Assembly (NCBI GenBank): GCA_963665235.2
Contig: CAXXLX010000001.1
Location: 1,376,001-1,440,000 of the forward strand
Source of the DNA: Candidatus Poribacteria bacterium
GTDB lineage: Bacteria; Poribacteria; WGA-4E; WGA-3G
Length of the DNA stretch: 64,000 nt
Reading direction: 5' to 3'
The position numbers and the translations under genes are program-made. The notes under the pieces were generated by a model that had not been told where the DNA came from, ran no database searches, and worked only from the letters and a program-made list of their open reading frames with translations. This document shows, one piece after another, positions 26,619 through 48,430 of this stretch; position 1 is the stretch's first letter, and every line of letters begins with the position of its first letter.

Positions 26619-27008
26619 TTAGTCGCTTGTGGTAGGATTTACGGTTACCTCGGGGCGCTCTGCTAAGACGCTGTCGAAGAGGGCGCGTCGCTCTGCTGCC
26701 AAATCTTCATACACAATCCTCGCGATGTCGGGCCCGACTGCCTGGAGTTTATCCTCCAAACCCGCCTCCTGGATACGGACAGTGGCAGTGAAGGCACCCT
26801 TATCCAGATCAAGCGGAAACCCCTCCTCCTGTTTGACACCATCTATGGCATACCGAACACGGCCCATGAAGAGCGGCCCATATCCCTTATGGTACCGGAG
26901 CTCTACGCTGAGCAGTTCTATAGAATCAGTGAAGGGCACACGGCCGGCCAGGTCAAGCGTCCTATACGTGATTTCGAGCCTATTAACGTTATCAACAATA
27001 TGTTTCAT
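26619..27008 (-). CDS. hypothetical protein, separated from its promoter and RBS by the isrB element
   Basis: 129-aa ORF from ATG at 27008, abutting the element right end. Confidence 0.65.
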   Translation of the reverse strand: MKHIVDNVNRLEITYRTLDLAGRVPFTDSIELLSVELRYHKGYGPLFMGRVRYAIDGVKQEEGFPLDLDKGAFTATVRIQEAGLEDKLQAVGPDIARIVYEDLAAERRALFDSVLAERPEVTVNPTTSD

Positions 27009-27038
27009 CAAAATCTTCGGTGTGGAGACCCCGTTGCT

Positions 27039-27836
27039 TTAGCACGGGGAGGAAACACCGCTCCTATATTGAAAGTTCAAGCGTGTGAGGACTTGAAAAT
27101 CTGTGCGTTTCGCACCCGTTGTGAGGCGTTGACCTTCTAAGCTATAGATAGAAAACACCCCTTTCGCATTAATACCCGTAATAGGATGTCCTCGGTGGGA
27201 CCTCGGACGTGTGATACCGTGTTTGCCGTGCTTTATCAGCGTGTTTTTCACAAGTCCTTCGCCTAACACAGTTCCGCCATATCTTGACCGCATTCCGCCC
27301 TTTGCCGGTTGTTCTCGGTGCAAGTTCCGCCTTGCTACGGGTATCGGGGATATGCAAAAAACGGATGTATTGTCGGGTTTCAGTGCCATGGCTTTCTTTG
27401 TGTTGCCATTGACAACCGAATGTGCCATCACCCAACTATCAACACAATGTGCATAGAAGTCATCAGAGAGTTTGTCTTGGCTCTTCTCTAATCCTAATGC
27501 CTTCCTCCGCGCAGAAGTCCACCTGCCTTTATAGCAAAACACATTTCCAACGCCATAGCGTGCTATCAACTCAGAGACAAACCAGCGTTTACCGACTTCT
27601 AACGGGCTAAAAGATGTGTTCCATCGCTTCTTACCCGGTTTTGTTCTTGCCTTGATGTCCTCCACACAGATTTTTTTGACAGGATACAAGTCAGACAACC
27701 AATCCAGGATGCGGAGTTTCCAATCCCAACGGGCACGCGTGCCTAACGATAGGCGGAACACTAGCCCACAGAGGCTATCTCTAAATGTCCACGCCAATGG
27801 TGTCCGTAGATCCTTTGTTTTGACTGGCACAAACAT
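27039..27836 (-). CDS. isrB: IsrB C-terminal half (RuvC-II and RuvC-III, no HNH), translated from a duplicated start
   Basis: TRARWDWKLRIL, ICVEDIKA, AHCVDSW, RRNLH; no HNH between RuvC-II and III. Confidence 0.75.
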   Translation of the reverse strand: MFVPVKTKDLRTPLAWTFRDSLCGLVFRLSLGTRARWDWKLRILDWLSDLYPVKKICVEDIKARTKPGKKRWNTSFSPLEVGKRWFVSELIARYGVGNVFCYKGRWTSARRKALGLEKSQDKLSDDFYAHCVDSWVMAHSVVNGNTKKAMALKPDNTSVFCISPIPVARRNLHREQPAKGGMRSRYGGTVLGEGLVKNTLIKHGKHGITRPRSHRGHPITGINAKGVFSIYSLEGQRLTTGAKRTDFQVLTRLNFQYRSGVSSPC

Positions 27837-28189
27837 AAGTTTGTTTTCTCCTTTCGGGTATATATTGCACACTTCCGAGAACGTCTCCCTCGGCGGAGTT
27901 CACGTCTTTTCTCAACCTTCTTGCCAACTTTGTTATGTGCATCTGCCTGCACGTTCAGATACGTATGGGCCTCAGATTTGACAGTAAATCCCTCTTTCTT
28001 ACTTCCCGGATCCACACCGACAACGATGTCTTGTGTTTCTCTATCACTCGGTTCTTTGTTGAGACGGACACAATAGACACCGTTGTTCCAATAAGGCGTT
28101 GCCTCACCGCGTTTGACAAGTTTCCTCGCACGTGCAGCATGCATCGGCATCAGCTGTTGTCCATCCTTTGTTTTGACTGGCACAAACAT
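27761..28189 (-). pseudogene. isrB: IsrB N-terminal half (PLMP/RRXRR, RuvC-I, bridge helix) with a foreign C-terminus
   Basis: QLMPMHAARARKL, VGVDPGSKKEG, RRELRRGRRSRK; ends in the recG-derived HWRGHLEIASVG*. Confidence 0.8.
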
Positions 28190-28204
28190 AAGTTTGTTTT
28201 CTCC

Positions 28205-28400
28205 TTTCGGGTATATATTGCCCCATCCAGATCAGGGGTTCGTAGTGGGATCAGACTTGGGGAGCATCCGAAACATACTTTAGGCTGCCACGCCCAGAAC
28301 CCCCGATATATTACTGTAGTCAACAAGTTACCCTTGTCTCTGTGATAGCCTTGGCGGGCATCAAAGACAAGCCCCCATGCTTTAGCTGGGGGTTATTGAC
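28205..28400 (-). ncRNA. omegaRNA (HEARO-like) scaffold
   Basis: lies between the element left end and the isrB RBS; starts GTCAA..CCCC..CTAAAG..GGGG; contains GTTGACTA and GGATGCTCCCCAAGTCTG segments typical of this RNA class. Confidence 0.75.
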
Positions 28401-28419
28401 TGGAGTTCTCCTTTTCATA

Positions 28420-28449
28420 AGTTTATCATGCACTATGGCTCTATGTCAA
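28420..28449 (-). promoter_or_regulatory. sigma70 promoter now driving omegaRNA/isrB
   Basis: TTGACA-N18-TAAACT with TG extension; followed by AAAAGGAG SD. Confidence 0.65.
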
Positions 28450-28491: not shown

Positions 28492-28526
28492 AGAGGCATT
28501 TAGCTCTCCTAACGATAGGCGGAACG

Positions 28527-31199
28527 CTAGCCAACAGAGGCTATCTCTAAATGTCCACGCCAATGTGTCCGTAGCATCCGTTTTAAGAGCTGATGTGCCG
28601 GGGCATTTAACCCCGTATCGGACTTTACCAACGCTGCTGCTTCCTTCTTCGCTATCTCTAAGAGAGAAACATCACTGAGGATATTGGCAATTTTAAAATT
28701 AGGTACACCGGACTGACGCGTGCCGAAAAATTCGCCCGGCCCCCGAATGTTCAAATCTTCTTCTGCGATGTCGAACCCGTTATTAGAACGCACCATCACC
28801 TGAATTCGGCGGTATGCATCATCTGTCTTCGGGGTTGCGATGAGATAACATGCAGATTTGTCGCGCCCTCTGCCGACGCGACCCCGCAATTGATGCAGCT
28901 GTGCCAACCCAAATCGTTCCGCGTGTTCAATTACCATCAATGTGGCATTCGGAACATCAATCCCTACCTCAATGACGGTTGTAGAGACCAGTATGTCAAG
29001 TTCACGTGCATTGAATTTTGCCATAATCTCCTGCTTCTCTACAGATTTCATTTGTCCGTGCAGCAACCCGACCCGCAGATGCGGAAAAACATCCTGCTGG
29101 AAGTGTTCCGCCATGGTTGTGGCAGCTTTCAACTCCTCTAATTTCTCGGATTCCTCTACAAGTGGATAAACGATATATGCCTGTTTGCCACGGCGGACCT
29201 CCTGTTCAAGTTTGGCGTAGAACTGTCCTCTGCCCTTTTCTTTGATCCATCGGGTTTCAATTTTCTGTCTGCCGGGGGGCATTTCGTCAATCACAGACAT
29301 GTTCAGGTCACCGTAAACCGTTAAAGAGAGGGTTCTCGGGATGGGGGTGGCAGTCATGACGAGCACATCCGGTGGCAGCTGTGCTGAGGCGAGTGCATCT
29401 TGTGCTTTGCCGCGGAGCGTTGCACGTTGCATCACACCGAACCGGTGCTGTTCATCAATGATAATGAGCCCTAATTTGTGAAAATCCACGCCCTCCTGTA
29501 TCAACGCCTGTGTGCCGACGATGAGATTCGCTGTGCCATCGGCTATTGTCGCCAACGCCTTCTCCCGTTCCGCTTTCGGTAGGTCGCTTTTCAGTAGCAC
29601 AACCTTCACGTTGAAAGGGGCAAACAACGCTGAAAGATTAGTGTGGTGTTGTTCGGCAAGGATTTCGGTTGGGACCATCAGCGCGCCCTGATAACCGTTC
29701 TGAATTGCACATAAGAGTGCCATCGCTGCGACAACAGTTTTTCCGGAGCCGACATCTCCTTGAATCAATCGGTTCATCACGCGTTTGCTCCGCATGTCCT
29801 CTCGGATTTCGGCAAAAACCCGTTTTTGTGCACCAGTCAACGTAAACGGCAGCGCGTTCACAAATTGACTGAGGAGCGAATTGCTCTCCTGTTCACTTTT
29901 TTCAATCTGAAATTGGATGCCGGGCTGTGAAGTCCTGTCGTCCTTCCGGAGTTCCATGCCGAGGCTGAGCAGGAAAAATTCGTCGAACGCCAGCCGTTTC
30001 TGGGCTGCTGTTTGATGCGCTGTAGATGTGGGAAAATGGATTTCGTTAATGGCTTGCTGTCTGTCAATAAGTTGGCACCGTTGCCGAAGTTCGAGCGGTA
30101 AAATTTCGGGAATTTCGGTGCCGTGCTGATCTAATGCAATTCGCATCCAAGTACGAAGCATTTTCGCTGTCAATTTCGCTGTGAGGGGATATTTCGGCAC
30201 AATCCGCTTTGTATGTATCAGATTATCCTCGTCAAACAGTTCAAATTCATAATCTGTCGCCTGGATTTCGTTGTAACGGCGCGAGAACTTACCGCTTACA
30301 ACCACCTCCGTGTCAACAGGGAGTATGGACTTGATATAGCCGATGCGCCGCCCGAAATTGACGAGCACAGCGACACCTGTACCATCGTAAATTGAGACCT
30401 TACCGATGCTCTTTCGTCCTTTACCCGCAGGTTTGTTGGTCGTATGATTGACAACCCGTCCCTGAATCGTCTCCGGTTCACCATCTTCTCTTCTGCCGAC
30501 TTTGTAAATTTCAACGGTTTTTGACCTATCAATGTAGTCGCGCGGGTAGTATTCTAGCAACTCCCCGACTGTTTGAAAACCGAGTTCATTTGACAATATT
30601 TCGGCACGGCGGGGGCCTATGCCTTTGAGATACTGGAGCGGTTTACGCAGAAATTCGAGCGAGTCAACATCCGTTGATACAGGTGTATCTCCAAGTATCA
30701 CAGGTGTTTCGGGAGCCGCCTCGGCAGCCTCGGAAAGCGTGGGTGAGTGCACAGCAGCACTATCGCTGTTTTTAAGCGTGGTGGGCTCTACATCATAGGT
30801 AGCTGGTGCCGGTTCGGATGGCACAGGTGTTTCGCGAAGAACACCTGTGTTCCGAAAAAGGGATAGGTCTTCATGTCTTGCGTTTGTGTCGCGAGGTTGC
30901 TGTGCTGCAGCCTGTCCCGCTTCAGTCTCAGCGAGGGCCGCATCAAGCTGTTCGGTTGCAACCTGTAGCGTCTGTTGGCGTTCTGCTGGCGATAAACTTG
31001 CATAGTTCTCAAAGCGTGCGGCGAGCCCCTTAAGCACCTGTTTTTCATCGGAGGCGAGCGGAAGGGCGTTCCCCCGTTCTACCCAGAGCATCACATAGGC
31101 GCCCAAACCGTTGACGACGACACTGTCTTGACACCCCATGCGAATCTCTTGCTGGAACGGCCGACGGATGGTTGTCAATATTTCTCTTAAATTATCCAT
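28527..31199 (-). CDS. recG: ATP-dependent DNA helicase RecG
   Basis: QGDVGSGKT, DEQHRFG, MTATPIPRTL, QLHQLRGRVGRG. Confidence 0.97.
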   Translation of the reverse strand: MDNLREILTTIRRPFQQEIRMGCQDSVVVNGLGAYVMLWVERGNALPLASDEKQVLKGLAARFENYASLSPAERQQTLQVATEQLDAALAETEAGQAAAQQPRDTNARHEDLSLFRNTGVLRETPVPSEPAPATYDVEPTTLKNSDSAAVHSPTLSEAAEAAPETPVILGDTPVSTDVDSLEFLRKPLQYLKGIGPRRAEILSNELGFQTVGELLEYYPRDYIDRSKTVEIYKVGRREDGEPETIQGRVVNHTTNKPAGKGRKSIGKVSIYDGTGVAVLVNFGRRIGYIKSILPVDTEVVVSGKFSRRYNEIQATDYEFELFDEDNLIHTKRIVPKYPLTAKLTAKMLRTWMRIALDQHGTEIPEILPLELRQRCQLIDRQQAINEIHFPTSTAHQTAAQKRLAFDEFFLLSLGMELRKDDRTSQPGIQFQIEKSEQESNSLLSQFVNALPFTLTGAQKRVFAEIREDMRSKRVMNRLIQGDVGSGKTVVAAMALLCAIQNGYQGALMVPTEILAEQHHTNLSALFAPFNVKVVLLKSDLPKAEREKALATIADGTANLIVGTQALIQEGVDFHKLGLIIIDEQHRFGVMQRATLRGKAQDALASAQLPPDVLVMTATPIPRTLSLTVYGDLNMSVIDEMPPGRQKIETRWIKEKGRGQFYAKLEQEVRRGKQAYIVYPLVEESEKLEELKAATTMAEHFQQDVFPHLRVGLLHGQMKSVEKQEIMAKFNARELDILVSTTVIEVGIDVPNATLMVIEHAERFGLAQLHQLRGRVGRGRDKSACYLIATPKTDDAYRRIQVMVRSNNGFDIAEEDLNIRGPGEFFGTRQSGVPNFKIANILSDVSLLEIAKKEAAALVKSDTGLNAPAHQLLKRMLRTHWRGHLEIASVG

Positions 31200-48331: not shown

Positions 48332-48430
48332 GTCAAGGCACCCCACCGCTTTGACATTATTTGTTAAGGAAAAAGGAGCGGGCATTCCGCCTCGCCTTAA
48401 AGGGATGAGGTTTCCTGCCCGAACGTTTTG
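48332..48430 (+). mobile_element. 99-bp non-autonomous IscB/IsrB-type IS200/IS605 derivative
   Basis: starts GTCAAGGCACCCC; 3' 60 bp aligns with the isrB element right end (AGGAGCGG..TTCC..TAAAG..GG..TCC..CCGAA..TTTTG), followed by ATGA. Confidence 0.7.

Follow-up and report, generated by a model that had tools for sequence, protein, structure and literature searches.

An ISC1/IsrB element between Shine-Dalgarno sequence and start codon of a Candidatus Poribacteria gene, and the start-codon bias of its family

Why should a mobile element be found exactly between the Shine-Dalgarno (SD) sequence and the start codon of its host gene? This question is raised by an insertion in a 64-kb stretch of a Candidatus Poribacteria genome (the window). 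Coordinates without a contig prefix refer to this window, and C1 and C2 are contigs of the same genome (G000). Judged from its sequence, the insertion is an IS200/IS605-type insertion sequence of the ISC1 kind, with an IsrB gene and an omegaRNA. The explanation considered here to be quite probable is that the element entered at an N|ATGA target and uses the host leader as its guide, and that the bias of its family towards start codons results from this target, the sense orientation of the copies and the loss of copies that disrupt genes.

The junction and the empty allele

The following features, given in nucleotides (nt) and amino acids (aa), define the insertion and its site.

27009..28400, minus strand: complete non-autonomous ISC1/IsrB element of 1392 nt, delimited by an eight-copy alignment and by the empty-allele joint 27008|28401
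27005..27008, minus strand: ATGA, the transposon target and predicted target-adjacent motif (TAM), also the host start codon and first base of codon 2; it directly follows 30 of the 31 complete copies in this genome and is kept in the empty allele
26619..27008, minus strand: host gene, a 129-aa open reading frame (ORF) from the ORF list, member of a multi-copy Poribacteria family, starting ATGAAACAT
28401..28416, minus strand: 5' flank GAAAAGGAGAACTCCA, the SD-containing host leader and, from its sequence, the predicted guide segment; a paralog leader matches it at 14/16 positions
28372..28392, minus strand: right-end subterminal hairpin CCCCCAGCTAAAGCATGGGGG, seen in the sequence and the eight-copy alignment, which doubles as the first omegaRNA stem; its pairs covary (columns 9-29)
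27029..27049, minus strand: left-end subterminal hairpin CCCCGTGCTAAAGCAACGGGG, seen in the sequence and the eight-copy alignment, whose loop contains the TAA stop of IsrB, 30 nt upstream of the host ATG

The site is found without the element in public sequence data. In a 1130-nt contig of run X1 (depth 41.4), position 27008 is joined to 28401, and exactly 1392 nt are skipped. The joint is supported by 88 and 220 matching letters on its two sides with no ambiguous overlap, and the arithmetic of the contig (1042 + 88 = 1130) leaves nothing between the two flanks. The same joint is seen weakly in run X6, with only 18 letters on one side. Since nothing was gained or lost where the flanks meet in the empty allele, the ATGA belongs to the host and no target duplication was formed. 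The same layout of SD, spacer and ATGAAACAT is displayed by two uninterrupted paralogs of the host gene, ...GAAAAGGAAAACTCCG|ATGAAACATATTG (C1:4494) and ...AAAAAGGAAAACTCTG|ATGAAAAAACAT (C2:316588). No relative of the same genus was present among the 40 relatives searched, hence no empty allele came from that source. An earlier note on this DNA had placed the element exactly between the SD and the ATG, which the X1 contig and the two paralogs bear out, and had expected that removal of 27009-28400 would restore an SD-ATG gene, which is the junction seen in the empty allele. Its proposal that the ATGA on the 3' side of the element is the TAM agrees with the N|ATGA target and the NTGA TAM described in PMC4810608 and PMC9581776, respectively.

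The boundaries of the element are equally sharp within its own family. Read on the minus strand, the element starts as GTCAATAACCCCC... at position 28400 and finishes as ...CCGAAGATTTTG at position 27009, its first letters being GTCAATAACCCCCAGCTAAAGCATGGGGG and its last CCCCGTGCTAAAGCAACGGGGTCTCCACACCGAAGATTTTG; intact copies are 1262-1410 nt long. In an alignment of eight close copies from the same genome with 60-nt flanks, the 5' edge is GTCA (CTCA in one copy) and the 3' edge is TTTTG, directly followed by ATGA in seven copies and AGGA in one. Both subterminal hairpins are kept in all aligned copies, and inverted terminal repeats are absent.

The 129-aa host protein has no match in Pfam or NCBIfam, and its best score in the protein atlas is 0.85, to unnamed clusters. 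Its paralogs show 88-91% identity in the same genome, and matches exist in 18 of the 40 relatives. Members of the family are located at window 26619-27008, C1:4111-4494, C2:316199-316582 and C1:1215360-1215698, and the family sometimes forms the N-terminus of proteins of 460-560 aa.

Start codons among the copies of the family

Complete copies were found by pairing matches to profiles of the two element ends; 17 of the 48 3'-end matches had no paired 5' end (solo ends and other families) and were excluded. The remaining 31 complete copies comprise 23 of full length and 8 miniatures of 450-652 nt. For the strict test, elements were removed in silico, and a site was called start-like when its ATG opens an ORF of at least 100 codons with an in-frame stop no more than 20 codons upstream. 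By this rule 16/31 copies are at start-like sites, compared with 1696 of the 39596 ATGA sites of the genome (4.3%; binomial p = 2.1e-14). By inspection the count is 18/31, as C934k and O2_342k are evident starts that fail only the upstream-stop rule. When only start-like and intergenic sites are considered, 16/22 copies are at starts against 27% expected (p = 1.1e-5).

Real N-termini are confirmed by full-length NCBIfam matches for several of the proteins behind the elements: LeuC (residues 1-465 to model positions 1-466 of 466), ArgJ (4-401 to 1-405 of 405), MurJ (5-528 to 2-505 of 506), and also MTHFS and a BatA-type protein. The leuC, argJ and murJ genes are each intact, and in the assembly (92.6% complete) no other member of their families scores above the cut-off.

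The bias extends to other genomes. A search with the intact IsrB returned 80 loci, all in Candidatus Poribacteria assemblies, and 65 of them allowed a junction ATG[AG] to be located; 15 were dropped, 11 with no end-model match and 4 whose extrapolated end lacks ATG[AG]. In 30/65 loci an ORF of at least 100 aa begins at the junction ATG, against 16.3% of the ATGA sites in their own flanks (p = 1.7e-8). In the strict start-like test, in which L070 and L071 with their identical flanks were counted once, the figures are 13/35 and 4.0% (p = 4.6e-10). Shorter genes are also found at junctions, such as an rpmJ-like ORF in L118 (named by eye). Thus the test set by the earlier note, insertions against the ATGA background, gave enrichment at start codons both in this genome and in the 65 related insertions.

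A simple filter may produce most of this bias. The target itself contains ATG; a guide would be made only by copies that are read into from outside in the sense orientation; and copies inside genes would be lost. Gene starts would then represent about half of the remaining permitted sites, and in this genome they are 1696/3411 (50%) of the start-like and non-coding ATGA sites that are sense to a gene within 150 nt. Most of the start-codon bias therefore follows from the N|ATGA target, the sense orientation and the loss of gene-disrupting copies, which together funnel the family onto gene starts. Co-orientation would be expected if guide transcription has to begin outside the element, as argued by Meers et al., and all 13 copies that are off start codons are co-oriented: 12 have a sense ORF that ends just upstream or spans the site, and the last one is 7 nt upstream of a sense ORF. 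The earlier note had stated that an ATGA TAM directs insertion to start codons; the enrichment stands, and 'directs' is too strong, since the filter model already gives about 50%. With regard to a replication-strand bias, no clear origin or terminus was seen in contig C1 by cumulative GC skew or gene-orientation skew.

The eight miniatures consist of the 5' part of the omegaRNA and the 3' end, with no IsrB ORF. They are located at C1:19462-19938, 337433-337901, 504553-505002, 532866-533432, 680877-681345, 1154421-1154878, 1512440-1513091 and 1888074-1888563, and 5/8 are at start codons by the strict test. Remnants of the family were also observed. A solo relic of about 59 nt that resembles the left-end (3') hairpin is located at window 48372-48430 (plus strand), directly before the ATGAAAG of a 97-aa ORF, with an SD-like AAGGAAAAAGGAG just upstream, and similar solo ends before ATGA are present at C1:607424, C1:3590413, C1:1970579, C2:361857 and C2:569780. 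In a decayed copy, C2:382529-383487, the TGA of the ATGA target is the stop codon of an upstream 205-aa ORF, and the insertion severs this gene from its stop.

The omegaRNA, IsrB and the proposed homing cycle

The RNA and protein parts of the window copy, and the sequences upstream of it, are as follows.

28190..28400, minus strand: omegaRNA scaffold, which starts at GUCAA and reaches the IsrB start codon, assigned by a match to HEARO RF02033 and by covariation
28420..28449, minus strand: sigma-70-like promoter match, TTGACA-18-TAAACT, its -10 preceded by TG, 10/12 consensus matches
27761..28189, minus strand: N-terminal fragment of IsrB, a 142-aa ORF with the PLMP motif and RuvC-I GVDPGSK; Pfam RRXRR PF14239, E = 8.4e-24, profile positions 1-105 of 174
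27039..27744, minus strand: C-terminal part of IsrB, out of frame with the N-terminal part, within ORF 27039-27872 (277 aa); collinear with the intact 359-aa IsrB of C1:1442411-1443734
27745..27868, minus strand: 124-nt patch that takes the place of 53 nt of the intact gene and puts IsrB out of frame, from alignment to intact copies
28508..28582, minus strand: 3' tail of recG, the likely template for part of the patch, 93% identical to element positions 585-659 and unchanged in the empty-allele contig

The HEARO model RF02033 aligned in full length (model positions 1-211) over 28213-28400, with 32.8 bits and E = 4.8e-4. The aligned upstream regions of 23 Poribacteria elements fold into one shared structure, and compensatory changes were observed in 24 of the 40 predicted omegaRNA pairs.

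The intact 359-aa IsrB matches Pfam RRXRR PF14239 (E = 3.4e-30), and neither HNH nor any other Pfam family was found in it at E <= 1. By phmmer it aligns over residues 3-299 to the IsrB of PDB 8dmb (E = 6.8e-26), with GVDPGSK, VEDI and HCVDS facing VDPGAK, TEDV and HANDA. These three positions are presumably the catalytic positions of RuvC. Full-length IsrB ORFs of 342-367 aa exist in 16 of the 21 copies scored.

The gene of the window copy is broken by the patch, which leaves two IsrB ORFs (142 aa and 277 aa) and keeps the element ends and the omegaRNA scaffold intact. The patch begins with a 59-nt exact copy of 28163-28221 (the end of the omegaRNA and the start of IsrB; element positions 180-238) and continues with about 75 nt that resemble the tail of recG, a gene at 28527-31199, upstream of the element. 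This recG-tail template sits 108-182 nt upstream of the element, and the copy differs from it by 2 substitutions and 2 single-base indels. Because the two templates are nearby and meet at a short shared GGAT, the sequence suggests that the patch arose by local template-switch repair. The order of the pieces also resembles a head-to-tail copy junction of the 420-nt stretch between the templates, joined at the same GGAT. Patch positions 27758-27824 are covered by no contig of runs X1, X5, X6 and X7.

By the rule of the family, the guide would consist of the 16 nt that precede GUCAA. A perfect target of this guide is absent from the filled genome; five sites followed by NTGA have no more than 3 mismatches, one of them a paralog start with 2, in keeping with the suggestion of the earlier note that an SD-containing guide could have near-matches. 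The proposed capture of the host promoter, with a 14-nt guide, is drawn solely from the promoter match at 28420..28449. This is a consensus match only: in this region a promoter scan gave 2 sites, and shuffles give an expectation of 2.4. In RNA library X7, contigs 90-99% like the window cover 27073-27734 and 27869-28401, and some continue past 28401 into unlike sequence. These contigs come from related copies, may include DNA, and give a weak hint of read-in transcription.

According to the proposed mechanism, a Y1 transposase acting in trans would insert the element as single-stranded DNA beside the 4-base target N|ATGA (in the IsrB orientation), with no target duplication. The omegaRNA would be transcribed from outside the element, so that the host leader would become its 5' guide, and the sole perfect target, guide plus ATGA, would be the empty site that is left after excision. 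The IsrB-omegaRNA complex would nick this empty site, and repair would restore the element. As the IsrB of the window copy is broken, the nicking protein would have to come in trans, from intact copies, of which at least 16 retain a full-length ORF.

Alternative explanations and known systems

A number of observations weigh against the explanation by N|ATGA target, host-leader guide and filtering. The share at starts among eligible sites is 16/22 (73%), 18/24 or 19/25 (76%, a count that adds the two by-eye starts and the probable start m532k), which is more than the 50% given by the filter model (p = 0.025 to 0.007). All of the five youngest full-length copies that could be paired (99.6-99.9% identical: A673k, C934k, G2880k, D1197k and E1841k) are at starts, which leaves slow purging little time. 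An insertion that separates SD from ATG ought to be as harmful as a disruption, yet the intact leuC, argJ and murJ sit behind such insertions, which the filter model does not explain. On the side of the RNA, transcription from the predicted promoter would leave the leader only about 11-15 nt long, perhaps not enough for a guide; the HEARO score of the window copy lies below the Rfam gathering score of 83, and so do all 13 matches in the genome. A TnpA whose target is ATGA was not identified in the genome, and after the lone TnpA element with similar ends comes GATAA. The filled form of the locus did not turn up in runs X1, X5, X6 and X7, none of whose contigs extends across the filled junction into the 5' flank of the window itself, which is no proof of absence.

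The excess at starts would be expected if the transposition machinery preferred translation-initiation regions beyond ATGA, either as an unstructured single-stranded target or through RNA-guided site choice. Such active targeting would fit the residual excess of about 1.5-fold over the filter model, the 5/5 youngest copies and the unequal share of starts between full-length copies with GTAAAG ends (10/12) and GTCAAT ends (3/11). It is judged improbable: the leaders have only the SD in common, too short for guide pairing; off-start copies show no AA after ATGA (3/13 at each position); and the papers examined describe no such mechanism for Y1 transposases. An extended target motif was rejected as the cause of the bias, since sites with AAATGAAA are start-like in only 66/504 cases (13%). 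It is very unlikely that the window copy, or its 124-nt patch, is an assembly or read error and no real allele. The patch is indeed assembled from two nearby templates, its recG-like part carries the substitutions and indels noted above, and run X1 shows only the empty form of the locus; however, an error would not give a full element with exact family boundaries at N|ATGA, the remainder of the copy matches C1:1442411-1443146 at 99.7% identity, and young insertions are expected to be polymorphic.

The position of the element also raises the question of how the host gene is translated. Pairing between the 16S tail and the element's final 20 nt amounts to only -1.8 kcal/mol; the gene's native leader reaches -9.3, native leaders as a group have a median of -6.2, and random 20-mers have one of -2.9. 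A substitute SD in the end of the element was thus rejected, and the loss of the ribosome-binding site claimed in the earlier note holds. The intact housekeeping genes, which have lost their SD to a 1.3-kb insert and are apparently still in use, present a puzzle. One solution would be that ribosomes that finish IsrB re-initiate at the host ATG, so that the host gene stays expressed and the element is near neutral or hard to delete imprecisely. This is a tentative possibility. In favor of it, of the 21 full-length copies scored, 16 have the IsrB stop codon 30 nt (14 copies) or 28 nt (2 copies) before the element end and host ATG; the element's end shows no SD-like pairing and is weaker in this respect than the median random 20-mer; leuC, argJ and murJ are all behind full-length copies; and rpmJ is behind an element in another genome (L118). 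However, the 30-nt distance is also set by the left-end hairpin needed by the transposase, 5/8 of the ORF-less miniatures are at start codons as well, and in the window copy, with its broken IsrB, no ribosome would reach the end. A further proposal, held with somewhat greater doubt, is that start codons are an evolved safe harbour, in which the host promoter and leader supply the guide, the IsrB stop hands translation back, and only exact excision is tolerated. If true, copies would persist before single-copy housekeeping genes (leuC, argJ and murJ, and rpmJ in a relative), similar to homing introns in conserved genes. Genes behind such elements are easily annotated with their real leader missing, which calls for caution.

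The element type, the target and the homing logic are already known; what stands out here is the quantified start-codon niche and the housekeeping genes that lack an SD. The explanation by N|ATGA target and host-leader guide was compared with three described systems. ISC1-1_MA of Microcystis aeruginosa NIES-843 (Kapitonov, Makarova and Koonin 2016, PMC4810608) is likewise non-autonomous, with an HNH-less IscB, a 5'-GT(CA) terminus, subterminal palindromes and N|ATGA insertion with no duplication, its boundaries being proved by empty sites. The present family differs in phylum (Poribacteria), in sequence and in its 31 copies against 4. The text of PMC4810608 contains neither 'start codon' nor 'initiation codon', and a gene-start bias is not analysed in it. 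DtIsrB of Desulfovirgula thermocuniculi (8DMB; Hirano 2022, PMC9581776), for which an NTGA TAM and nickase activity are described, shares the length of about 350 aa, PLMP, a split RuvC, the lack of HNH and an upstream omegaRNA with the IsrB SD in its last hairpin, as well as, by prediction, the NTGA-type TAM. The relation is distant: the scaffold to the ATG is about 211 nt here against about 300 nt reported, and the window copy is frameshifted and known from sequence alone. For the IscB elements of Meers 2023 (preprint, 10.1101/2023.03.14.532601), read-in transcription and orientation bias are described; as observed or proposed here, the guide lies outside the right end, read-in is needed, copies are co-oriented with the upstream gene, and the TAM equals the transposase target. 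Those elements, unlike the present ones, carry HNH and cut both strands, and the accessible text does not mention a start-codon niche.

The scaffold is like HEARO RF02033 in its full-length alignment from GUCAA and in its place directly upstream of a nuclease ORF, and unlike it in score. The HEARO description of Weinberg et al. 2009 is said to mention insertion next to ATGA/GTGA. HEARO is unmentioned in Weinberg 2010 (PMC2864571). No paper on a start-codon bias of IscB/IsrB insertions was found in the literature searched, to which subscription papers such as Altae-Tran 2021 and supplements did not belong. The 31 dated copies and the empty allele in this sponge-symbiont genome form an exceptionally clean natural data set that bears on the origin of guide transcripts and on the sites that let IscB/IsrB persist.

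Y1 transposase genes and other hairpin-ended elements are present in the same genome. Y1 TnpA (PF01797) has 13 matches, of which 8 are full-length open frames and none lies within an IsrB element. Hairpin-ended elements of 420 nt were observed at C1:646156-646574, 1142318-1142739 and 4266336-4266757, together with a 1.8-kb element at C2:338531-340328 that has a Y1 TnpA gene. The ends of these four, GTGATAG...CCGAAKA, are related to those of the IsrB element and are followed by GATAA, not ATGA. In a second IS605-type family of about 1.36 kb (C1:63530-64915, 170118-171503, 212325-213735 and some 10 others), the hairpin loops are the same GCTAAAGC. TTGACATAC invariably comes before the left end of this family, which thus abuts or carries TTGACA, the -35 consensus.

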